A stretch of 37,236 nt of DNA, from IMG/VR virus record IMGVR_UViG_2778261175_000003. The stretch is one strand, 5' to 3'. Both the position numbers and the translations under genes were made by a program. The number at the start of each line of letters is the position of its first letter. The first letter of the stretch is position 1. The notes under the pieces were generated by a model. The model did not search any database. It worked only from the letters and a program-made list of their open reading frames with translations, and had not been told where the DNA came from. This DNA comes from a virus. Taxonomy: Duplodnaviria > Heunggongvirae > Uroviricota > Caudoviricetes. Below, in pieces: positions 1 to 37,236 of this stretch.

Positions 1-141
1 TTACTGCTTACACTGTAAGAACGCCGCAAACTCCGCTCCCCAGAATCTCATCCGTATTTCGCACAGCGAACCGTGCAACATCCAGATGATGAGGATTGCC
101 GTCACGCAGAACGTGATGGCCGTAAGCGATTTTTGCGACAT
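1..141 (-). CDS. Hok/Gef/PndA-family type I toxin, 46 aa (MSQKSLTAITFCVTAILIIWMLHGSLCEIRMRFWGAEFAAFLQCKQ)
   Basis: Hand translation of the minus strand from ATG (rc of 139-141) to TAA (rc of 1-3). One N-terminal TM helix then SLCEIR...E.AAFL.CK, matching the conserved C-terminal motif of Hok and PndA as recalled. Too short for the ORF track. Confidence 0.65.
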   Translation of the reverse strand: MSQKSLTAITFCVTAILIIWMLHGSLCEIRMRFWGAEFAAFLQCKQ

Positions 142-331: not shown

Positions 332-592
332 TTAATTTTGAGGTAAGGGCAAACTCATCTGATTGTTTCCTTTGTGTGAAGCTGGCAGTTCATGCCACGG
401 GATACCTTCTGAAGAGTGAGCGCCGGAGGCGTGTTTCGATGTGAATTTATGGAAAGCTTCCAGTGTTGAGAAGCATACACCGCATTCTAGGTTGTTACAT
501 TGGTAATACTTTTGCCGCACGGTGTTTGAATCATTTTCCGGACGACTGGTGCGGATTCGGGCAGATGCGCCACAAAGCGGACAACGGAACAT
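332..592 (-). CDS. ogr: Ogr/Delta-family zinc-finger late transcription activator
   Basis: N-terminus MFRCPLCGASARIRTS...YYQCNNLEC matches the P2 Ogr C4 zinc-finger pattern (CPLC...C..C); location next to D as in P2. Confidence 0.85.
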   Translation of the reverse strand: MFRCPLCGASARIRTSRPENDSNTVRQKYYQCNNLECGVCFSTLEAFHKFTSKHASGAHSSEGIPWHELPASHKGNNQMSLPLPQN

Positions 593-802: not shown

Positions 803-1117
803 GTGGTTGCTGATCATGAATATTTGTATTGGAAGATAATTGCAATGAGCGAAAGAGTGTTTGAGAAAGAACTATATTCTGAATGGGTTATACGCAATAG
901 TCTATATTGGATGACTCCGCTTACTCGATGGAAACTCCATGAAGACGTTTCCCACTGGATAATCTCTTTTGAAAACGATAATCCCAAATTCCTTTATGAA
1001 TTCGATAGGCTGCTTAATGATTACTCTTTGCGAGAAAAGCTACAGCATAAAACAGGGGCGTTGAGAGACTCTATTGTCCATAAAGTGCTTCGCAGTGTTG
1101 ATGAGAGGCTTTCATAA
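803..1117 (+). CDS. hxsD: Small protein at the head of the Hxs cassette, HxsD-like by position
   Basis: ORF track (GTG start at 803; alternative ATG at 845). Stop overlaps the start of the next gene (TAATGG). Assignment by operon context only. Confidence 0.45.
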   Translation: MVADHEYLYWKIIAMSERVFEKELYSEWVIRNSLYWMTPLTRWKLHEDVSHWIISFENDNPKFLYEFDRLLNDYSLREKLQHKTGALRDSIVHKVLRSVDERLS

Positions 1118-2505
1118 TGGAATTGATGCCATTTAATTTTGACAGATTGCCTAATGGACAGGTGTTTATAAGCAACCTTGCAGGTTTTCATCATTTCATT
1201 GGTGAGCAAGACCTTATTGATCTTTCTGATGAGCGAATTAGTTCGGAGCAATCAAACGTGCTAGAAAGTAAGCTTTTCATAACCAGTGAAAGCTCATCTG
1301 CTATAACTCCCTATGCTTTAAGTTCTGCTTTTGCAAAACGATTGATGAATGAACTGGCTGTCAGGCCAATTTTCATGATTGTACCCACATTACGTTGTGA
1401 CCATACATGCAAGTATTGCCAGGTTAGTAGAGCTTCTGTTAATGCCTCAGGTTACGACCTAAATCCTGAGCTCATCCCCGATATTATTTCGGCTATTAAA
1501 AAACTATCAACGCCACCTTACAAAATAGAGATACAGGGTGGGGAGCCTCTCTTGCGGTTTGATTTAATTCAGAACATCTATGATCAATGTGCTGAAACGC
1601 TGGGAAGAACCAATTTTGAGATGGTGGTGGCATCAAGTCTGTCTGTCTTGAATGAGGATATGATTGAATGGTCGAGAGACCGGAACATAACGTTCTCTGT
1701 GTCGCTTGATGGTGAGGAAGTTGTTCACAACAGTAATCGAATTCTTGGTCGTGGGCTTGCGTACAGTAGAACAGTGTCAGGGGTAGAGGCTATCAAACAC
1801 TCTTTAGGTGCTGGCCGCGTTGCAACGGTTACTACAGTTACTAAAGAGCTTATCAGACGTCCTGAATCGATTGTTCAGGCTCACTTGTCTCTTGGGCTCA
1901 AGGACATGTTTATCCGACCTGTTAGTCCCTATGGGTTTGCACAAAAAGCTTCTTTCACCTTTTCTATGGACGAATACTTCAGCTTCTATGCCTCGTTGAT
2001 AGATGAAATCCTTAAGATTAATAATGAAGGGATAAGGGTTGTGGAACATTCGGCCTCCATTCATCTGAAAAGGATCTTCAATCCCGGTTTTAGTGGCTAT
2101 GCGGATTTAAAGTCTCCAAGTGGAGTCGTGCTTAACAGTATTCTTTTCAATTATGACGGTCGAGTATATGGTAGCGATGAGAGCCGTATGTTGCAGAAGG
2201 TGAATCCTGAAACGGAGTTCAGTGCGGGTGAAGTTAAGACGCTATCATTTTCTGATAGTCCTTACTATAACGCAGTATTGACTTCATCGTTCAATTTTGC
2301 TCTGCCAGGTTGTGATACATGTGCATATCAACCATTTTGTGGTTCAGATCCATGCCAGAACATAAGTGTACAGGGTGAGCCTGTCGGCGATAGGAGTCGT
2401 TCAACGTTTTGTCAATATCACAAGGGGATGTTCAGGTATCTGATGAACTGCATCTCAGAGGGTGGTTCGAAGGCTGAGATGCTAAAAGGATGGGCATATG
2501 TCTGA
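1117..2505 (+). CDS. hxsB: Radical SAM/SPASM-type maturase, HxsB-like (462 aa)
   Basis: CxxxCxxC motif (CDHTCKYC) about 95 aa from the N-terminus, C-terminal Cys cluster (CDTCAYQPFCGSDPCQ) typical of SPASM/twitch domains; GGEPLL motif; translationally coupled to neighbours. B versus C naming is by size and order, from memory of the TIGRFAMs Hxs families. Confidence 0.75.
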   Translation: MELMPFNFDRLPNGQVFISNLAGFHHFIGEQDLIDLSDERISSEQSNVLESKLFITSESSSAITPYALSSAFAKRLMNELAVRPIFMIVPTLRCDHTCKYCQVSRASVNASGYDLNPELIPDIISAIKKLSTPPYKIEIQGGEPLLRFDLIQNIYDQCAETLGRTNFEMVVASSLSVLNEDMIEWSRDRNITFSVSLDGEEVVHNSNRILGRGLAYSRTVSGVEAIKHSLGAGRVATVTTVTKELIRRPESIVQAHLSLGLKDMFIRPVSPYGFAQKASFTFSMDEYFSFYASLIDEILKINNEGIRVVEHSASIHLKRIFNPGFSGYADLKSPSGVVLNSILFNYDGRVYGSDESRMLQKVNPETEFSAGEVKTLSFSDSPYYNAVLTSSFNFALPGCDTCAYQPFCGSDPCQNISVQGEPVGDRSRSTFCQYHKGMFRYLMNCISEGGSKAEMLKGWAYV

Positions 2506-3610
2506 GGTTATCAGGAACGATATCTTTCATTTTGCTTCTACAGAGAACGTGCCCACGGGGTTCTATCGGTTATGCAAACAAAAACCAGTGAACCCTTTAT
2601 TCTTTTTGCCCAATTTGCTAGTAGTTGCTGAGGGCAATAATGATGCCATTCCACCATGCTTTGATTTCTCTGTTATTAGCACTGAATTATTTGAGTCAAT
2701 TGAAGATGGAGATATTGGGATAATCAACAATGGCAATATGATACGCGTTATTCTGTCACGCAAAGCCAACCATAATACTGTCTTAGTTACGGAACGCTGC
2801 AATAACTTGTGTCTGTTTTGTTCGCAGCCACCAAAGAAAATAAATGATGACTGGCTACTTACCCAATCAGCTCTTGCTATAGCTTCATTTGGCTTGAACG
2901 GAGTTGTTGGGGTCAGCGGTGGTGAACCTTTGCTATATGGGGATGACTTCCTTCACTTCATTGATTTTATCATCGAGAATTCACCAGATACTGCTTTACA
3001 TGTTTTAACAAACGGACGCAAATTTGCTGATACCAACTTTACACAGGAAATGGCAAAGCGAAGCAAAAAGATCAAAATCACCTTTGGTATCCCGCTCTAC
3101 TCATCAAGACCACTTGTGCATGATCATCTGGTAGGGAGTGATGGCGCATTTAATGAAACGGTTAAAGGGTTAATCAATGCAGGAAACTTGGGGATTAATA
3201 TCGAACTTAGAGTTATTCCTACACTGGCTAACTATACCGAATTGGATGATATCGTAGAATTCGCTGGCCGTGTGTTCTCCAACATCAATCAGATTTCCCT
3301 TATGGGGTTGGAGCCTATCGGTTGGGCACGAAAAAACTGGTCCACCATCTTCATTGATCACAGTAGTTATAGTGAGAAAATAATCTCTGCCATAGACGCT
3401 GCATACAGGTCAGGCATACCTCTGACAATTTTTAATTATCCTTTGTGTTATCTTCCTGAAAGGGCTAGGGAGCTTGCTGTTCAGTCGATCTCTGATTGGA
3501 AAAATTACTATCCAAAAGAATGTGATGAATGTACTCAGAAGCCTTCCTGTGCTGGCTATTTCAGTTCCTCAAAAGGCCGTTTTCATCAATCACCGAGACC
3601 AATTTTATGA
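2498..3610 (+). CDS. hxsC: Second radical SAM/SPASM-type maturase, HxsC-like (370 aa)
   Basis: CxxxCxxC (CNNLCLFC), GGEPLL motif, C-terminal Cys cluster (CDECTQKPSC). Start ATGTCTGA overlaps the hxsB stop; its stop overlaps the hxsA start (ATGA). Confidence 0.75.
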   Translation: MSEVIRNDIFHFASTENVPTGFYRLCKQKPVNPLFFLPNLLVVAEGNNDAIPPCFDFSVISTELFESIEDGDIGIINNGNMIRVILSRKANHNTVLVTERCNNLCLFCSQPPKKINDDWLLTQSALAIASFGLNGVVGVSGGEPLLYGDDFLHFIDFIIENSPDTALHVLTNGRKFADTNFTQEMAKRSKKIKITFGIPLYSSRPLVHDHLVGSDGAFNETVKGLINAGNLGINIELRVIPTLANYTELDDIVEFAGRVFSNINQISLMGLEPIGWARKNWSTIFIDHSSYSEKIISAIDAAYRSGIPLTIFNYPLCYLPERARELAVQSISDWKNYYPKECDECTQKPSCAGYFSSSKGRFHQSPRPIL

Positions 3611-4242
3611 AAAAGTTTAATTTTGCTGCTCTACTTCCGGGATTTTTGGCTCTCAACAATTCTGTATGGGCAAGCGATTCATCTACAGGAGCGAGTGATT
3701 TACCTGGTATGACTCTTAATGAGCATGATTTAGTGATAGCTCCACTTAACACGGAAGTCCCATTTTATATCGCAGGGCATCGAAGCCATAGTTCTCATAG
3801 GAGCCATAGCTCTCATAGATCCTCATCAGGTGGTGGATACTATGGTGGAAGTACCCCCTATTATCCAAAAACATACAGCTCACCAAGTTCATCTGGTTCT
3901 TCAAGTTCAGGTGCAAGTTCCTCATCGTCCTCTTCCTCGGTGCGTGCACTTCGTTCTAACGATAATAATAGAACCACTAACACGAGTTCTGTTGGAACTT
4001 CAGAGGTTAACCGTACGAGTAATGGGCTTGCTTCTGATGCAGAGAAACGTAAGCGATTGATTATGCGAGTTCAGTTCGCATTGCTGGACAGGGGATTTTA
4101 TAACGGAAATATTGACGGCATAATGGGGCCATCCACAAGGCTGTCTGTGAAAAATTACCGCATTGCGAATGGATTACCGATTCCTGCAACTGAAACACTC
4201 GACACACAATTGTTAAATTCTTTGAATATATTAGCTCGCTAA
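3607..4242 (+). CDS. hxsA: His-Xaa-Ser repeat protein HxsA-like: signal peptide, (HxS)x5, Ser-rich linker, C-terminal peptidoglycan-binding-like domain
   Basis: Start taken at MKKFNFAALLPGFLALNNSVWA (ATG 3607) rather than the track start 3529. Contains HRSHSSHRSHSSHRS, a poly-Ser tract and a C-terminal segment (RVQFALLDRGFYNGNIDGIMGPSTRLSVKNYRIANGLP) resembling PG_binding_1 domains. Confidence 0.75.
   Translation: MKKFNFAALLPGFLALNNSVWASDSSTGASDLPGMTLNEHDLVIAPLNTEVPFYIAGHRSHSSHRSHSSHRSSSGGGYYGGSTPYYPKTYSSPSSSGSSSSGASSSSSSSSVRALRSNDNNRTTNTSSVGTSEVNRTSNGLASDAEKRKRLIMRVQFALLDRGFYNGNIDGIMGPSTRLSVKNYRIANGLPIPATETLDTQLLNSLNILAR
3778..3822 (+). repeat. Coding tandem repeat encoding five His-Xaa-Ser units
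   Basis: DNA reads cat-cga-agc-cat-agt-tct-cat-agg-agc-cat-agc-tct-cat-aga-tcc; position derived from codon arithmetic in the hxsA frame. Confidence 0.8.
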
Positions 4243-4406: not shown

Positions 4407-5516
4407 TCATTCTGCTATCCATTCCGGGATTTTTGCCTCAAGCTCAAGCTGTGTGGTAAAGCCGCTGTTATCAATGGTGTGCTCGGCTTTTGCAATAATC
4501 CAGTCCTGATTATCAATCTCGCTTTTAAATCCTGTTACCGTGCCATGCATTTCGGGGTAGAGTTCTGCACGCCCACGTGCCAGCGTGATGGAAAATGATG
4601 CGGCTCCGCGTTGTAGCTGCTGCCACTTTGCCGCCGCTGCGCGTCTTGCTGCCTGCTCGTTTTTAAACGTTTTGCGCATGACGTATACATTGCCGTCTGC
4701 GCCCTCCATGTAATCCCCCTCGCGGCTGCTGCTTTTCTCCTTTTTTGTTTTTTGGGCAGAACCACGTTTCGTCACGCTGACTTTTTTCTTTTTGCCATAG
4801 TCCAGGTCCAGCCAGTAAGCGCGTACCCCCGTGTACGCCTGCCGGTCTGCAATGCGGAAGTGATGGCTGTCACCGCTGCTGCGGGTGATGGCGAATGAGG
4901 GCAGCGGCTTTCCGCTGGCGCTCACCCCCTGTCCGGGCACGATGAAAAGCAGTGCGCCGTTCTTGACGGTGGCTATGGCTCCCAGCATGTCTGCCATACG
5001 CGTGAGAAACGAGATGTCACTTTCCTCCGTCTGGTCGGCGTGGTCGATTTCCACCTCTGCCAGCGAGGCGCTGATTTGCGCCTTCAGCCCGTAGCGGTAC
5101 GCGATGGCAGAAACAACCTGCCCCACCGTCACGTCATGCCAGGACACTTCACGCTTCACGTTGAACTCCTGCCGGAAGTCTGCGCTGCTGGCCGTGATGG
5201 TGAGCCTGTCCGGTGGTCCCTCATGTGTCACCTCGTCAACGATGAAGGTTCCTTTGTCCATCAGTGCCTCACCTTTCCAGCCCAGCGCCAGACCCAGCGT
5301 CTGTCCGCGCTTCGGGAGCTGCACGCTGCCGTCGCAGTCGTCAATCGTGAGGGTTAACTGGTCTGCCTCAAATCCCCGGTTGTCGGTCATCGCCAGCGAG
5401 ATGACCCGTCGGGTCAGCGCCGCGTTTTCCGTGCCCTTAACCGTGATGGAAAAATCAGGGATCTTCACGCACTCTGACAGACCGTTCAGGTATCCGCTTA
5501 CGTCCGCAGGGTTCAT
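4407..5516 (-). CDS. D: Tail protein D (late control gene D family)
   Basis: Protein resembles P2 gpD. Start placed at MNPADVSG (ATG at 5514-5516, GGAGA RBS upstream) rather than the track GTG at 5699. Confidence 0.85.
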   Translation of the reverse strand: MNPADVSGYLNGLSECVKIPDFSITVKGTENAALTRRVISLAMTDNRGFEADQLTLTIDDCDGSVQLPKRGQTLGLALGWKGEALMDKGTFIVDEVTHEGPPDRLTITASSADFRQEFNVKREVSWHDVTVGQVVSAIAYRYGLKAQISASLAEVEIDHADQTEESDISFLTRMADMLGAIATVKNGALLFIVPGQGVSASGKPLPSFAITRSSGDSHHFRIADRQAYTGVRAYWLDLDYGKKKKVSVTKRGSAQKTKKEKSSSREGDYMEGADGNVYVMRKTFKNEQAARRAAAAKWQQLQRGAASFSITLARGRAELYPEMHGTVTGFKSEIDNQDWIIAKAEHTIDNSGFTTQLELEAKIPEWIAE

Positions 5517-5588
5517 CGCAATTTCTCCGTCTGTGTCTTCGTACGGCGAAATACTCCCACGCGCACGGAGGCGCTGTAATCCTGCGTA

Positions 5589-5614
5589 TGTTGTCGGAGA
5601 GCGGCGAGAACAGG
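5589..5614 (+). promoter_or_regulatory. Candidate late-promoter activator element TGTTGTCGGAGAGCGGCGAGAACAGG upstream of FI
   Basis: Near-identical 26-nt element recurs upstream of P (24183-24208); each lies about 60-80 bp upstream of a late-gene start and carries TGT...ACA ends reminiscent of the Ogr-dependent P2 late promoter motif. Spacing differs from the canonical TGT-N12-ACA. Confidence 0.4.
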
Positions 5615-5678
5615 CAGCGCGTGAATGCGGGGCTGTTTTTCGGGAGGATGTCGCCACACAAAACACCAGGAGGTGCTC

Positions 5679-6860
5679 ATGAGTGAAACACGCTTTCACG
5701 GTGCACGCGTCAAAGAAAACACCGACCTCGTGACCGCGATTAATGACATTGATTCCAGTGTCATCGGTATCGTGGCCACGGCGGACGATGCAGACAGCGA
5801 CGCGTTCCCGTTAAACAAGCCCGTATTGATCACCCGCGTGGCGAATGTGCTGGGTAAGGCAGGCACAACAGGCACGCTGTACAAAACGCTCAAGGCGATT
5901 TCCGACCAGACCAGCCCGAAGGTTATCGTGGTGCGTGTGGCAGAAGCCGGAGAGGAAGGTGAGACACAGGATCAGCTTGTCATTGGTGGCTCGCAGGCTG
6001 ACGGCAGCTACACGGGCATGTATGCCCTGCTGGTTGCTGAACAGGACGAGAGCATTGGTTACCGCCCGCGCATTCTGGCGGCTCCCGGCCTGGATACCGA
6101 AGCAGTCACATCCGCCCTGTGCGTCATTGCGGACAAGCTCCGCGCCTTTGTGTACGCCGGATGTAACGGGTGCGACACGATGGCGGAGGCAATCACTTAC
6201 CGTGCGAAGTTCTCCGCGCGTGAGCTGATGCTGCTGTGGCCTGACTTCATTGCCTACAACCCGGTGAGCGGAAATAACGAAACATTTCCGGCAGCGGCGT
6301 ATGCGTGCGGGTTGCGTGCGCGGATTGACAGTGAACAGGGCTGGCACAAGTCACTGTCCAACGTGGCGCTGAAAAATGTTCTCGGTATGTCGCAGCAGGT
6401 GTTCTGGTCGTTGCAGGCCGAAGACAGTGATGCGAACAACCTGAACAACAAGGAAATCACCACGATTATTCGCCGTAACGGCTTCCGCTTCTGGGGGAAC
6501 CGTACTGCCGAAACCAGCGACTACATCTTTGAGGTGTACACGCGCACAGCGCAGATTCTGGCAGATACCATCGCTGAGGCGCAGTTCGAAACCATTGACG
6601 AACCGCTGACCCCGGCGAACGTGAAGGACGTGATTAGCGCCATCCGCGCAAAACTCAACGCCCTGGTGACGGCCGGGAAACTCATCGGTGCGGAGTGCTG
6701 GTATGACGTGCTGGACAACGGCACGACGGATTTGCGTCAGGGGCGCGTGCGCATCCGTTATAAGTACACGCCAGTGCCGCCGATGGAAGATCTGACGCTG
6801 TATCAGACCTTCACGGATGAGTATTTCGACTCCGCTTTTGCAACGCTGGGAGGTGCGTAA
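5679..6860 (+). CDS. FI: Contractile tail sheath protein
   Basis: Strong similarity to P2 gpFI (e.g. FPLNKPVLIT, ELMLLWPDF, RRNGFRFWGNRT, YKYTPVPPMEDLTL). Start at ATG 5679 with AGGAGG RBS. Confidence 0.9.
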   Translation: MSETRFHGARVKENTDLVTAINDIDSSVIGIVATADDADSDAFPLNKPVLITRVANVLGKAGTTGTLYKTLKAISDQTSPKVIVVRVAEAGEEGETQDQLVIGGSQADGSYTGMYALLVAEQDESIGYRPRILAAPGLDTEAVTSALCVIADKLRAFVYAGCNGCDTMAEAITYRAKFSARELMLLWPDFIAYNPVSGNNETFPAAAYACGLRARIDSEQGWHKSLSNVALKNVLGMSQQVFWSLQAEDSDANNLNNKEITTIIRRNGFRFWGNRTAETSDYIFEVYTRTAQILADTIAEAQFETIDEPLTPANVKDVISAIRAKLNALVTAGKLIGAECWYDVLDNGTTDLRQGRVRIRYKYTPVPPMEDLTLYQTFTDEYFDSAFATLGGA

Positions 6861-11926: not shown

Positions 11927-11934
11927 ATAAAAAA

Positions 11935-11959
11935 GAGGGAGTGTAAAAAGCACTCCCTT
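11935..11959 (-). terminator. Hairpin (GAGGGAGTG-loop-CACTCCCTT) with A-run on plus strand, i.e. U-run on minus strand
   Basis: Read directly; functions as an intrinsic terminator for leftward transcription and possibly marks the end of the U operon. Confidence 0.4.
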
Positions 11960-12055
11960 ATGGCCTTCATGGAAAAGAAGCAAATGTTGTCAATACATTC
12001 TGACTATATATAAATCGCCTGATGATGGCAATGGTGATATTCGGGAAATAAAAAA

Positions 12056-12072
12056 GCCCTCGCAAAGAGGGC
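12056..12072 (-). terminator. Hairpin GCCCTC-GCAAA-GAGGGC preceded on plus strand by an A-run (minus-strand intrinsic terminator)
   Basis: Read directly from the sequence. Confidence 0.45.
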
Positions 12073-12245
12073 AACATGCATTGTGTGAAGATTTAATTTT
12101 TCTGGTTGCAGGGGGGATTATATTGAACTGTATTCATTTAATGCAATATTTTTAATTGTCATCATCATTGATGAAAATATTTCTTGTGTTTTTGTTGCCC
12201 TGATTACAATTTCACTCATTACTGTGTCTTTGCGGCAAAAAAAAA

Positions 12246-12262
12246 GCCCGCACGGGGCGGGC
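12246..12262 (-). terminator. Hairpin GCCCGC-ACGGG-GCGGGC preceded on plus strand by nine A (strong minus-strand intrinsic terminator)
   Basis: Read directly from the sequence. Confidence 0.55.
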
Positions 12263-12963
12263 AAGGAATGTTTGCATGTGTATAACACTGCGGGATTATA
12301 AATAAATTACGCGTTCTGTAAAATCCCCTTTGATGGAGATTCAGGCCATACCAGCGCATTATAACAATCTTCGTCCTTCACGGAAGTGAAAGTCACCTGC
12401 TGAAGTTCTTTAATGTATTCAATTCACGCAGCCAACCTTCCTTTGTCTTGATCGCTGATGGTGCCGGGCAATAACTCAGATTGCCAGATTCTGATCCTCT
12501 CTTTTGCCTCCGGCAGCAGGGGATTTCGTTGTCATTCTGCTTTAGCCTGCCACTTTTCAGGTGGCAGCACATGACGAACAATATTTTCATCATCAAATAT
12601 CCAGTTACCTGAGTCATCAGCACGTTGGTTAGCGTTAATATCAGAAGTATTAACAACACTAAAACCGACATGATTAAGTGTTGATGCCTCTCTGGTAATG
12701 GTGACAATAATATTATTTCGTTGTAAATCATTTTGATTTTATCTGGTCGAAAGGTCCCTGCATCGTTATGCCGGTTTTTATTTCCTTCAGAGGAAATATG
12801 ATTACTTTGTGCTTCTTTTTTAACACATACAGTCTGGAGTTAATGTTGCCTGTTTTATGTTCTTGAGTGCGTCATATTAATCTCTTACATATTATATCTG
12901 GTACAATTTATAGTTTTCTGAAGCTTGCCTGAAAGAATTGAGTTTCCTGCAGGCTTTCAAGGG

Positions 12964-13062
12964 GGTGATGATGATATGCGGGAGAAACTTCAGCCTGCAT
13001 CTGTGTGGGGAATCACTGAATACGCTTAAAGACAAATCGTCGTCGCTGAACGCATTCCCTTA
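12964..13062 (+). pseudogene. Degraded duplicate of the 3' end of tail gene U
   Basis: About 75 nt align at roughly 85 percent identity (by eye) with the true U 3' end at 11840-11915 (GATGA.GATATG.GGGAGAAACT.CAG.CTGC.TCTG...CTGAA.ACGCTTAAAGACAAA), with a 1-nt deletion breaking the frame. Confidence 0.6.
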
Positions 13063-13108
13063 ACCTGACGCCACCACCTCATACAGATAACGAGGTGGTA
13101 GCGTGATT

Positions 13109-36261: not shown

Positions 36262-37236
36262 ATGAGCATAAAATCAATTCCGGGAGGGTATCTTCTTGAC
36301 ATGCGCCCTGAGGGGCGTAAAGGCAAACGCATTCGCAAAAAATTTAAAACGAAATCGGATGCAGTTTTATATGAGCGGTGGGTGCTGGCGCAACAGCATA
36401 ACAATGAGTGGAAAGGAAACTCCATTGATCGCCGTCCGCTGTCGGTGCTTATTGACTTGTGGTGGAAATACCACGGCCAGCTAATGAAGTCAGGGCATAA
36501 CACGCGCCTTAAATTGCTGCGCTTGAGTGAGGCAATGGATGACCCGTGTGTGCATAAACTTAATACAACGATGCTCACCGAGCTACGTGTGTCCAGGATA
36601 GAGCAGGGGATACAGCCCAGCACCATTAATCGAGAGATTGGGGCGTTAAGCGCGATGTTTACCGCACTCATCTCATCCGGCCATTTTCTTAACGATAACC
36701 CCGTTCAAGGCCTTAAAGGAATGAAGGTTAACGAGCGCGAAATGGGATATCTGAGTAAGTCTGAATGTGTTCAGTTGCTGGATGCACTGGCTGAAAATCC
36801 CGATGAACGGCTGGCTGTCGAAATCCTTCTGTCGACCGGGGCGCGATGGGGCGAGGTAGCGGCACTGGAGCAGCGCCGTGTTCTTCATTGTCGAATCACT
36901 TTTTCAAAAACGAAGAACAGCAAAAACCGTACCGTTCCTATTTCTGAAAGCCTGTTTGAAAAGATCAAAAAACGGGGCGGGAAACTGGTGTTTCCGACGC
37001 TGGATTATCCATTAGTTCGCGATGTCATCAAAACGGTCGCACCTGATGTTCCTGACGGCCAGGCTGTTCATGCGCTGCGCCACACCTTCGCCAGTCATTT
37101 CATGATGAACGGCGGCAATATTCTGACGCTCCAGAAAATTCTGGGGCACGCAAAGATTCAGACAACGATGATTTATGCCCATCTTGCGCCGGATTACTTG
37201 CAGGATGCGGTGAGATTTAATCCTATTGCTGGGTAA
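36262..37236 (+). CDS. int: Tyrosine integrase
   Basis: Catalytic R...HxxR...Y signature (TGARWGE, HALRHTFAS, TMIYAHL); start at MSIKSIPGG (M51 of the track ORF); downstream of C as in P2. Confidence 0.85.
   Translation: MSIKSIPGGYLLDMRPEGRKGKRIRKKFKTKSDAVLYERWVLAQQHNNEWKGNSIDRRPLSVLIDLWWKYHGQLMKSGHNTRLKLLRLSEAMDDPCVHKLNTTMLTELRVSRIEQGIQPSTINREIGALSAMFTALISSGHFLNDNPVQGLKGMKVNEREMGYLSKSECVQLLDALAENPDERLAVEILLSTGARWGEVAALEQRRVLHCRITFSKTKNSKNRTVPISESLFEKIKKRGGKLVFPTLDYPLVRDVIKTVAPDVPDGQAVHALRHTFASHFMMNGGNILTLQKILGHAKIQTTMIYAHLAPDYLQDAVRFNPIAG

Follow-up and report, generated by a model that had tools for sequence, protein, structure and literature searches.

The gene at 3607-4242 of the window (the whole 37,236-nucleotide stretch of viral DNA analysed here) is hxsA, and with a probability of roughly 85% it encodes the effector precursor of the HXS anti-phage system, which consists of hxsD, hxsB, hxsC and hxsA. 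In the window this system is carried by a prophage. The initial annotation of the gene had described an exported, wall-associated and radical-SAM-modified HxsA that acts in the periplasm. This reading is supported by our analysis, and the same picture was already published in 2026.

An intact hxsD-B-C-A operon

The operon hxsD-B-C-A (845-4242) is intact and ends with hxsA; the stops and starts of its neighbouring genes overlap (Table 1). The products score far above the cutoffs of the four NCBIfam equivalog models (HxsD, HxsB, HxsC and HxsA). HxsA itself reached 161.3 bits against TIGR03979 (cutoff 121.65) with model positions 4-189 of 190 covered, which assigns it to this family, and the neighbours expected for the family, hxsD, hxsB and hxsC, lie directly upstream. 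E. coli STEC384 and STEC379 carry hxsA genes whose DNA is 100% identical to it. A search of PHROGs (E <= 1e-5) returned no family matching HxsA. Hxs is said to have been described originally, in silico, by Haft and Basu in 2011.

The ATG of hxsA at 3607 is shared with the stop of hxsC as ATGA, and the TAA lies at 4240-4242. A longer in-frame ORF (start 3529, 237 aa) was rejected because all homologues begin with MKK and the start at 3607 overlaps the hxsC stop; PGAP uses 3607 as well. For hxsD, the start was taken from the PGAP annotation of a 99.9% identical E. coli locus. An alternative GTG start of hxsD is found at 803.

Table 1. Features of the hxs operon, its prophage flanks and the segments of HxsA in the window
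Feature	Coordinates	Strand	Basis
ogr/Delta-like zinc-finger late activator, left edge of cargo	332..592	-	PHROG 603; PGAP at matching E. coli locus
hxsD, small accessory protein, 90 aa	845..1117	+	TIGR03976, 90.6 bits vs cutoff 50
hxsB, radical SAM/SPASM maturase, 462 aa	1117..2505	+	TIGR03978, 558 bits vs cutoff 370
hxsC, radical SAM maturase, 370 aa	2498..3610	+	TIGR03977, 398 bits vs cutoff 268
hxsA, His-Xaa-Ser repeat effector precursor, 211 aa	3607..4242	+	TIGR03979
HxsA aa 1-22, signal peptide MKKFNFAALLPGFLALNNSVWA (then SD)	3607..3672	+	n/h/c-region features, -3/-1 rule
HxsA aa 23-44, acidic spacer	3673..3738	+	translation, homologue alignment
HxsA aa 45-57, conserved APLNxxxPxYIAG motif before the repeats	3739..3777	+	homologues
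HxsA aa 58-72, five consecutive H-x-S units HRS HSS HRS HSS HRS	3778..3822	+	
HxsA aa 69-73, SHRSS motif, published +8 Da site	3811..3825	+	
HxsA aa 75-147, disordered linker, Gly/Tyr/Pro then Ser/Asn/Thr-rich	3829..4047	+	pLDDT
HxsA aa 148-211, three-helix PG_binding_1-type domain	4048..4239	+	Pfam, profile, AlphaFold/Foldseek
Phage tail gene D-like protein, right edge of cargo	4407..5699	-	PHROG 52, E 2e-154

The operon matches HXS in gene order and motif content. HxsB contains Cys94/98/101 (CxxxCxxC) and the C-terminal Cys399/402/408/413/432/445, HxsC contains Cys101/105/108 and Cys342/345/351, and HxsD carries LYW and LLNDYSLRE. Thus, the catalytic Cys triads, the auxiliary Cys and the motifs LYW, LLNDYxLRE and SHRSS are all intact, as in HXS. 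PADLOC v2 (2023), which has no Hxs model, gave weak, uninformative viperin-like matches on both radical-SAM proteins and nothing else, and an Rfam search of the window at gathering scores gave no match. In promoter and terminator scans the signal was at the level of shuffled sequence and did not locate the ends of the operon.

The HXS operon of E. coli strain MEM (CP012378) was characterised by Li et al. (Nat Commun 2026, 17:3910; PMC13128918). It has the same genes in the order D-B-C-A, and the Cys residues whose mutation caused loss of function in that study (HxsB Cys98/101 and Cys399/402; HxsC C105/C108 and C342/C345) have the same numbers in the window. The two HxsA proteins also share the signal peptide at 1-22, the five H-x-S repeats, the SHRSS site and the boundaries of peptide 48-78, whereas the MEM protein has 214 aa and the one described here 211 aa. 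The MEM HxsD numbering is shifted by 2 relative to ours, which fits the MAMCER start of defence-island alleles. Four further alleles of E. coli HxsA show 85-92% identity, and over aa 1-80 three of them are identical or nearly so to HxsA of the window. Judged from the residue numbering and these four alleles, MEM HxsA is probably 85-92% identical to HxsA of the window.

The operon as prophage cargo

The hxs operon belongs to a P88-like (P2-type) prophage, where it is bordered by ogr on the left and gene D on the right. Its GC content is 0.40-0.43, compared with 0.56-0.62 in the adjoining tail genes. In phage P88 and its relatives hok and gene D lie close together (about 500 bases apart in P88) with no hxs genes between them, and the same hxs cassette occupies the same junction in diverged phages. 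Flanking core genes, deviant composition and absence from related phages at this junction mark hxs as a moron. The hxsA allele of the window occurs in about 30% of hxsA-carrying E. coli genomes. In strain K_EC180 an hxs operon lies in a P88-like prophage that has decayed. Elsewhere, the neighbours of hxs are defence genes (ABC-three-component, SIR2 and Kiwa-like). As AT-rich cargo between ogr and gene D, the operon would therefore act here as prophage-encoded exclusion and, by analogy, give the prophage a module for broad superinfection exclusion.

Envelope exclusion encoded by (pro)phages is known from prophage Sie proteins such as P22 SieA, which block DNA entry. T4 Imm and Sp are likewise comparable to the HXS copy described here, since all are phage-encoded, act in the envelope and stop the incoming genome after adsorption. 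However, Imm, Sp and Sie-type proteins are single small membrane proteins or lipoproteins of narrow range that undergo no enzymatic maturation. HXS, in contrast, depends on two radical-SAM enzymes, and its range extends to 110 of 113 coliphages (PMC13128918). HxsA, which matches no PHROG family, has no sequence relation to these proteins. The location also differs from that of the HXS operons of Li et al., which are typically chromosomal, with 77% of them outside predicted prophages (PMC13128918).

Repeats, motif and linker of HxsA

All parts of the domain architecture proposed for the gene product in the initial annotation, i.e. a signal peptide, H-x-S units, a poly-Ser linker and a PG_binding_1-like C-terminus, are present. 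The five consecutive H-x-S units that had been claimed (H58RS, H61SS, H64RS, H67SS and H70RS) form a tandem repeat at aa 58-72. Among 500,000 shuffles of the protein, none contained at least five consecutive units and 11 contained at least three. The DNA of this region consists of an 18-bp unit in 1.9 copies. Five units are found in 24 of 45 homologues and six in 12 of 45. H58, R59, S69, H70 and S72 are invariant in the 45 homologues, and the first and the last repeat are the most conserved positions of HxsA; this distribution fits a site-specific modification.

In the E. coli HXS operon, a +8 Da modification, corresponding to +C and -4H, was located on the last repeat, SHRSS, by MS/MS and alanine scan and attributed to the radical-SAM enzymes, and changing any single repeat to AAA abolished defence (PMC13128918). 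That HxsA is a radical-SAM-modified substrate, as had been predicted for the window, therefore agrees with this published work. In the window, residues 48-78 are bounded by L47 and Y78, matching the chymotryptic peptide that bears the +8 Da (PMC13128918).

The segment immediately before the repeats, with the motif APLNxxxPxYIAG, shows an identity of 0.61 and includes the invariant A56 and the nearly invariant L47 and N48. It is probably a recognition element for the maturases. The preceding acidic spacer is the least conserved part of HxsA, with an identity of 0.10 relative to homologues below 60% identity. This spacer falls inside segment 23-47, which went undetected by MS yet is needed for defence (PMC13128918).

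Downstream of the repeats, the poly-Ser linker is recovered as a run at aa 91-111 (nt 3877-3939) in which 18 of 21 residues are Ser, and aa 76-136 are predicted to be disordered (pLDDT <50). The linker varies in length and sequence among HxsA homologues, and residues 114-139 are dispensable for defence (PMC13128918).

Radical-SAM maturation ahead of export to the periplasm has a precedent. In quinohemoprotein amine dehydrogenase, QhpC is a target of QhpD, an rSAM/SPASM enzyme of the cytoplasm, and is found in the periplasm after its modification. HXS resembles the QhpD/QhpC pair in this respect. Compared with the models of other radical-SAM maturases (PapB, CbpB, anSME-type), HxsB scored 70.7 bits for PapB, 54.3 for anSME and 34 for the QhpD family, all far below the family cutoffs. 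HXS differs from anSME, ranthipeptide PapB-type and QhpD maturation by the +8 Da on a Ser-His-Arg-Ser-Ser motif, the chemistry of which is unsolved. As HxsA has no Cys, thioether links are excluded.

The similarity of HxsB to these peptide-modifying maturases bears on a different reading, according to which HxsA is a RiPP-type precursor that releases a small active peptide, or a late blocker of lysis proteins. The HxsA precursor is indeed cleaved (PMC13128918), and a PG domain is common to endolysins. However, the cleaved, active HxsA retains the repeats and the PG domain, with MS coverage from 48 to the C-terminus, and the published DpnI/Southern and TEM entry assays largely refute this reading (PMC13128918). 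We give it hardly any credence.

Signal peptide and export

The N-terminus of HxsA has the features of a Sec-type signal peptide. The n-region is basic with a charge of +2 (K2, K3) and is followed by an h-region of 13 residues (F4-L16), the most hydrophobic stretch of HxsA, which contains the best 9-residue window (mean Kyte-Doolittle 2.18). The predicted signal peptidase I site lies between A22 and S23 (VWA/S), with the small residues V20 at -3 and A22 at -1; a lipobox Cys and a twin-Arg are both absent. A hydrophobic stretch and, near 17-24, a candidate cleavage site with small residues occur in all 45 homologues; the basic N-terminus is shared by most of them. HxsA was rejected as a lipoprotein because it has no Cys and as a Tat substrate because it has no twin-Arg. 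A covalent Lpp-type anchor was also rejected, the C-terminal residue being unconserved and Cys being absent.

For E. coli HxsA, SignalP 6.0 places the signal peptide at residues 1-22 (Li et al. 2026, PMC13128918). When it was replaced, HxsA disappeared from the periplasm and defence was abolished (PMC13128918). The Sec-type signal peptide proposed in the initial annotation is thus borne out by the sequence features and their retention in homologues, and the proposed periplasmic location by the dependence of periplasmic HxsA on this signal in the E. coli operon. We infer that HxsA uses the Sec pathway and signal peptidase I.

Two observations concern the route of export. First, the N-terminal cleavage of HxsA depends on HxsB, HxsC and HxsD, and replacement of the signal peptide does not prevent it (PMC13128918). 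Therefore, the processing is not simply that of signal peptidase at A22/S23, and Li et al. suggest on the same grounds a non-canonical export route (PMC13128918). Second, among homologues below 60% identity the h-region (aa 7-17) has an identity of 0.65, against 0.61 for the repeat-adjacent motif and 0.48 for the PG domain. Such conservation is unusual for a signal peptide. The hydrophobic segment could thus be a dedicated recognition or targeting element that directs HxsA into a specialised, HxsB/C/D-dependent export and not (only) into plain Sec. An element of this kind is suggested by an h-region as conserved as the repeat-adjacent motif and more conserved than the PG domain. It is also suggested by the requirement of HxsB, HxsC and HxsD for periplasmic accumulation as well as cleavage, and by truncated HxsA carrying MalE or CueO signals, which was exported yet inactive (PMC13128918). 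We nevertheless consider specialised export improbable. The segment shows every feature of a Sec signal, and the candidate small-residue cleavage site is kept in homologues. The operon has no transporter gene, HxsB, HxsC and HxsD lack membrane and signal segments (PMC13128918), and the re-targeted truncations are explained as inactive because the modification is missing. Sec-dependent export remains our preferred reading.

The C-terminal domain

The peptidoglycan-binding domain proposed for the C-terminus fell just short in a direct Pfam search and was recovered by broader comparisons. PG_binding_1 (PF01471) matched aa 154-191 with E 1.5e-4 over 38 of the 57 model positions; the 22.3 bits miss the gathering score of 23 by 0.7 bit. 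Among the homologues, 39 of 45 matched PF01471 (E <= 0.001), the best with E 3.4e-14. The HxsA family profile retrieved solved PG_binding_1 domains with E 4e-6 to 5e-3 (6tci, 8da2, 5anz, 4c2c and 3bkh). These matches include SleB (6tci, E 4e-6), an L,D-transpeptidase, SltB3, CtpB and KZ144.

The AlphaFold model is confident over approximately aa 141-210, with block means of pLDDT of 85-98. Its helices (136-161, 175-188 and 200-205) form a three-helix bundle, and the DGxxGxxT motif is found as D170-G-I-M-G-P-S-T177. Each of the best ten Foldseek matches in the PDB is a PG-binding domain or a cell-wall enzyme, and the family profile reached them by sequence as well; the rmsd is 1.7-2.9 A over 54-59 alignment columns. 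With the whole, mostly disordered HxsA model as query, the E-values for the 55-residue domain are weak (0.05-2). The HxsA C-terminus is therefore similar to the SleB N-domain (6tci), SltB3 (5anz), CtpB (4c2c) and the KZ144/AP3 endolysins in its predicted three-helix fold, 25-29% identity and the DGxxGxxT motif. Unlike in those cell-wall enzymes, the domain is not joined to an enzyme in HxsA and tethers a disordered, modified repeat segment. At the level of sequence profiles and the predicted structure, the C-terminus is confirmed as a PG_binding_1-type domain despite the sub-threshold Pfam score.

A mutant in the PG-binding region of HxsA lost defence, and HxsA was recovered in the soluble periplasmic fraction (PMC13128918). 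HxsA would bind peptidoglycan, and "anchored" can only mean a non-covalent association with the wall.

Phage DNA entry and the target of HxsA

In the published experiments, HXS restricted 110 of 113 phages and all four genes were needed (PMC13128918). With HXS, adsorption was unchanged and cultures did not die rapidly at MOI 5 (PMC13128918). In entry assays (DpnI/Southern and TEM), T7 DNA entered at about 30-50 min instead of about 8-12 min, and phage capsids remained filled with DNA (PMC13128918). By analogy, the operon of the window would confer resistance by delaying DNA entry, as the MEM operon does. Of the functions that the initial annotation had put forward, the blocking of incoming phage DNA agrees with the T7 result. 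The blocking of lysis proteins is not supported: DNA entry is delayed and capsids stay full, so the block precedes any lysis step (PMC13128918).

Metal handling, the remaining option, also finds no support. Five His residues spaced by three, with Ser and Arg beside them, could act as a chelator of Ni, Zn or Cu, and HxsA would then be a periplasmic His-rich metallochaperone or sequestering protein with phage defence as a secondary effect. However, the whole protein has 6 His and there are no genes for metal transport or regulation nearby, the neighbours being phage genes here and defence genes elsewhere. The strong and broad defence phenotype, moreover, requires all four genes (PMC13128918). 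We regard a metal-binding role as very unlikely.

The target of mature HxsA was considered separately. Periplasmic HxsA shifts DNA in vitro (PMC13128918). The T7 escape mutations lie in ejectosome proteins, namely gp15, which forms the periplasmic tunnel, with two more in gp16, and no interaction of HxsA with gp15 or gp16 was seen in pull-downs (PMC13128918). Since DNA transits within a protein channel and escape mutations affect the channel proteins, DNA binding in vitro may not be the mechanism. Wall-located HxsA could instead block or destabilise the trans-envelope ejection channel of the phage, or its opening in the peptidoglycan. The authors concede that transiting DNA is shielded by the tunnel (PMC13128918), and the structural model suggests that a protein held on peptidoglycan and extending a long, flexible arm would be well placed against a structure crossing the wall. 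The negative pull-downs, the in vitro DNA shift and the restriction of 110 of 113 very different phages, which speaks against recognition of a single protein, argue the other way (PMC13128918). We consider an action on the channel and not on DNA unlikely, although it deserves real weight.

Discussion

Taken as a whole, the HXS model for hxsA, as the effector precursor of a prophage-carried system, is one we hold with high confidence, at the probability given at the outset. In this model the HxsA precursor would be made in the cytoplasm, where HxsB and HxsC, with HxsD, would add the +8 Da modification to the last repeat S69-H-R-S-S73. The same three proteins would also permit N-terminal processing within residues 23-47. 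Modification would thus precede export, and the signal peptide (aa 1-22) would carry HxsA over the inner membrane. In the periplasm, the three-helix PG_binding_1 domain would hold HxsA non-covalently on peptidoglycan, and the flexible linker of about 70 residues would bring the basic His/Arg repeat head within reach of the route taken by the infecting genome. The target would be the DNA or the ejection channel. Genome entry would be strongly delayed, and infection would fail without the cell being killed.

According to its discoverers, HXS is the first bacterial defence shown to hinder phage genome entry and also the first whose protein effector is matured by radical-SAM enzymes (PMC13128918). 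Because this biology was published in 2026, our finding adds no new principle. Three links of the published model are inferences, namely peptidoglycan binding, the route of export together with the actual mature N-terminus, and what HxsA really targets. The prophage-cargo context and the conservation of the hydrophobic core of the signal peptide go beyond the main text of that paper.

The window adds a clean example of HXS as cargo of a complete P2-type prophage, and a prophage-borne copy blurs the contrast drawn by Li et al. between "bacterial" HXS and phage-encoded exclusion. We tentatively combine the two additional observations in one proposal, which we think has a real but less than even chance of being right: HXS cargo exchanged between P88-like phages at the ogr/D junction serves as a broad weapon of superinfection exclusion, and the conserved signal core does double duty. 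As a recognition or holding element, the core would first retain the HxsA precursor in the cytoplasm for modification by the radical-SAM enzymes and would function as a Sec signal only afterwards. This would account for the need for HxsB, HxsC and HxsD in export and cleavage. A sizeable minority of HXS operons would then be mobile cassettes of P88-like temperate phages and not an "intrinsic bacterial" system.

The hxs operon and the start of hxsA

All four products of the operon scored above the cutoffs of their NCBIfam models, which for HxsA is the equivalog model TIGR03979. The window thus carries the His-Xaa-Ser operon in full, with its genes in the canonical D-B-C-A order. The hxs genes are already named by NCBI's annotation pipeline in all complete genomes examined. 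The ATG of hxsA overlaps the stop codon of the preceding gene as ATGA. A longer in-frame ORF from 3529 is also present, but all 44 aligned homologues begin at the MKK of 3607, and it was discarded. The PGAP start in an E. coli locus 99.9% identical to the window is likewise 3607.

Features of the window discussed in the text
Feature	Position	Strand	Remarks
hok	1-141	-	Hok/Gef-type toxin, 46 aa, SLCEIR motif; extreme left end, as in P88 ('MokW-like host killing')
ogr	332-592	-	left end of prophage
hxsD	845-1117	+	HxsD NCBIfam model, 90.6 bits (cutoff 50)
hxsB	1117-2505	+	HxsB NCBIfam model, 558 bits (cutoff 370)
hxsC	2498-3610	+	HxsC NCBIfam model, 398 bits (cutoff 268)
hxsA	3607-4242	+	single ORF, 211 codons; TIGR03979, 161.3 bits (cutoff 121.65)
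gene D	4407-5699	-	followed by sheath, tube, tape measure and gene U-like tail genes
sheath-tube-tape measure-U block, part facing gene D	5625-6860	+	
AT-rich stretch	11927-13100		GC 0.39-0.40; between gene U-like tail gene and tail-fibre module
fibre and head modules			right of the tail genes
replication gene A-like protein, repressor, integrase (36262-37236)			right end of window

Signal peptide, repeats and linker of HxsA

The initial annotation had proposed a Sec-type signal peptide, five consecutive H-x-S units, a poly-Ser linker and a C-terminal segment resembling a peptidoglycan (PG)-binding domain, and all four were recovered. Residues 1-22 (MKKFNFAALLPGFLALNNSVWA) have the features of a Sec-type signal peptide, which are kept in homologues. 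Two lysines in the n-region precede a 13-residue hydrophobic core, where hydrophobicity reaches its maximum for the whole protein (mean Kyte-Doolittle of 2.18 in the best window of 9 residues), and a candidate cleavage site with Val at -3, Ala at -1 and Ser next. Neither Cys nor twin-Arg was found in the signal peptide. A basic N-terminus is present in most of 45 HxsA family members, and a hydrophobic stretch with a small-residue candidate cleavage site at about residue 17-24 in all 45. For E. coli HxsA, SignalP 6.0 assigned the signal peptide to residues 1-22 (Li et al., 2026; PMC13128918).

Among homologues less than 60% identical, the core AALLPGFLALN (residues 7-17, window 3625-3657) shows an identity of 0.65, which is on a par with that of the repeat-adjacent motif (0.61) and exceeds that of the PG-binding domain (0.48). 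The following residues 23-44 are spacer-like and the least conserved segment in the alignment, with an identity of 0.10. Such strong conservation is atypical of an ordinary Sec signal; it hints at a second role of the core, which may be tied to the HxsBCD-dependent export reported by Li et al.

The five H-x-S units form an uninterrupted run from H58 to S72. When HxsA was shuffled 500,000 times, five consecutive units never occurred and three or more occurred 11 times. Five (24/45) or six units (12/45) are the norm in the family, and conservation among homologues peaks at the first repeat, the last repeat and the preceding motif APLNxxxPxYIAG. In the linker, 18 of the 21 residues at positions 91-111 are serines. 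The AlphaFold model predicts disorder throughout residues 76-136, and both length and sequence of the linker vary freely between homologues. From pH 7.5 to 5.5, residues 48-211 carry about +9 to +13 net charges.

The C-terminal domain

The Pfam PG_binding_1 model matched HxsA residues 154-191 with an E-value of 1.5e-4 and 22.3 bits, 0.7 bit under the gathering score, so that a strict use of standard tools would overlook the domain. The predicted PG-binding fold is nevertheless backed by several comparisons. PF01471 is matched by 39 of 45 homologues (best E 3.4e-14), and the family profile matches PG-binding domains of known structure from SleB (6tci, E 4e-6), an L,D-transpeptidase, SltB3, CtpB and endolysin KZ144. 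The AlphaFold model is confident over residues ~141-210 (block means of pLDDT 85-98) and contains three helices. Each of the best ten Foldseek matches in the PDB is either a PG-binding domain or a cell-wall enzyme and is matched in sequence by the family profile as well; the rmsd of these Foldseek matches is 1.7-2.9 Å across 54-59 alignment columns. A DGxxGxxT loop lies at D170-T177. Since the C-terminal residue is unconserved among homologues and HxsA can be extracted as a soluble periplasmic protein, any anchoring would be non-covalent.

Relation to the tested HXS system

A full-text search returned a single functional study of HXS (bioRxiv preprint, January 2026; Li et al., Nat Commun 17:3910, March 2026; PMC13128918). 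There, an hxsDBCA operon cloned from E. coli strain MEM restricted 110 of 113 coliphages, and hxsD, B, C and A were each needed. Adsorption was unaltered, and a phage dose of MOI 5 did not lead to rapid culture death. Entry of the T7 genome, followed by a DpnI/Southern assay, was delayed from ~8-12 min to ~30-50 min, and capsids were still full in electron microscopy. Defence was lost upon replacement of the HxsA signal peptide, mutation of the PG-binding region or substitution of any single repeat by AAA. A cleaved HxsA form was seen only with HxsB, HxsC and HxsD intact. A mass shift of +8.0 Da was detected on chymotryptic peptide 48-78 and mapped to SHRSS of the last repeat, and MS did not cover residues 23-47 (PMC13128918).

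The proposal of an exported, wall-associated, radical-SAM-modified protein that acts in the periplasm, perhaps on phage DNA as it enters, is essentially this published model. The feature is real and was interpreted correctly, and its function and localisation were already known from the 2026 publication. A block of phage lysis proteins, also suggested initially, is contradicted by the published entry assays (PMC13128918). Release of a small RiPP from HxsA is contradicted as well, as MS of the active species covers residue 48 to the C-terminus (PMC13128918).

Signal-peptide and PG-region dependence, periplasmic location, the +8 Da shift and delayed DNA entry were shown for a closely related allele (PMC13128918); the window itself has an intact operon and the motifs, domain layout and conservation peaks of HxsA. 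The mutated Cys residues of the MEM proteins have the same numbering in the window (HxsB 98/101 and 399/402, HxsC 105/108 and 342/345), and the signal peptide spans 1-22 in both. Residues 48-78 of the window's HxsA (NTEVPFYIAGHRSHSSHRSHSSHRSSSGGGY) are bounded by L47 and Y78, as expected of a chymotryptic peptide, and match the published 48-78, with SHRSS at S69-S73. However, the published HxsA has 214 aa instead of 211, and the HxsD numbering is two higher. In other E. coli alleles, HxsD can start two codons earlier (MAMCER...) and HxsA is 85-92% identical to the window's; three of four compared HxsA alleles show no or almost no difference from it across the first 80 residues. The 46 genomes whose hxsA is at least 99% identical do not include strain MEM, which is absent from the genome collections covered. 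Taken together, these sequence comparisons suggest that the tested operon is probably of the second, MAMCER-type allele.

hxs as prophage cargo

A complete P2-type prophage makes up the window. Among sequenced phages it is closest to P88 and other members of Xuanwuvirus (Peduoviridae), with ~82% DNA identity over the tail genes. In P88, a gap of ~500 bases that contains no hxs genes, and where the window's ogr region also aligns, lies between hok and gene D, whereas in the window 3.7 kb of AT-rich DNA separates ogr from D. The tail genes have a GC content of 0.56-0.62, this insert 0.40-0.43. In four IMG/VR contigs, the same ogr/gene D junction is occupied by the same hxsDBCA cassette (99-100% amino-acid identity), and their D, sheath and tube proteins are just 62-85% identical to the window's. 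The cassette is therefore common to diverged phages. In all 11 IMG/VR matches, the stored DNA around hxsA ends at the viral contig end.

hxsA occurs in 151 of 5,426 complete E. coli genomes, 46 of them with the window's allele. This share (46/151) roughly agrees with the 23% of hxs operons reported within predicted prophages (PMC13128918). In K_EC180, the one genome inspected with the window's allele, hxsA neighbours ihfA within a decayed prophage of the window's type. In the four genomes examined with other alleles, hxs resides in islands bounded by an integrase rather than in P2-type prophages; ssrA adjoins two of the islands, and the neighbours include ABC-three-component, SIR2 or Kiwa-like genes. 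A role of HxsA in metal handling, another early suggestion, is unsupported by this context: no metal genes lie near hxs, which has phage or defence genes as neighbours. Among the islands, hxsA was found to be followed immediately by a DUF6119/TIGR04141 gene. The hxsD of strain CT02 has lost its start to an IS3 element.

Many pig ETEC/STEC genomes carry a decayed prophage with the window's allele and an intact hxsDBCA (e.g. 15800-27800 of L001, the K_EC180 locus), with IS66/ISCro1 in gene D and truncated tape-measure and fibre genes. IS2 lies within the hxs operon in two strains, ETEC4068 and ETEC4075. Decayed hxs-bearing remnants may be scored as non-prophage by prophage predictors.

Other parts of the prophage were also inspected. 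Rfam gave no Sok-type antisense RNA for hok at the gathering score. The second AT-rich stretch contains no convincing ORF and has no match above 92% identity among complete E. coli genomes; in the decayed K_EC180 prophage the corresponding position is taken by a 'transferase' gene, and the stretch may be a second variable cargo site. Gene D diverges from the opposite-strand tail block, an arrangement common to P88-like phages; in P2, D lies downstream of U on the same strand.

Proposed mechanism and possible target

Modification of HxsA would precede export, because the radical-SAM enzymes have no signal peptides. HxsA would then be exported via Sec and signal peptidase I and bind peptidoglycan through its C-terminal domain, and the ~70-residue linker would give the basic head reach to the entry path. 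In the published model, HxsA is cleaved N-terminally in the cytoplasm and exported afterwards (PMC13128918). This order is a weak point, since the signal peptide would be gone before its use. A simpler reading is that the full-length precursor is modified, exported by Sec and cut at A22/S23, possibly with a second trim.

Periplasmic HxsA shifts DNA in vitro, a pull-down of gp15/gp16 was negative, and escape mutations map to these two ejectosome proteins (PMC13128918). Since the escape mutations affect channel proteins and the phage's channel encloses the DNA during its passage, HxsA may in fact target the channel or the surrounding wall rather than DNA.

Beyond the published work, interest rests with the putative binding of HxsA to peptidoglycan, its route of export and mature N-terminus, and the molecule it would target, and with the prophage-cargo context. 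Since the window's copy is prophage cargo, the published contrast of bacterial HXS with phage-encoded exclusion fails for it, and its HXS would provide the lysogen with a broad exclusion module.
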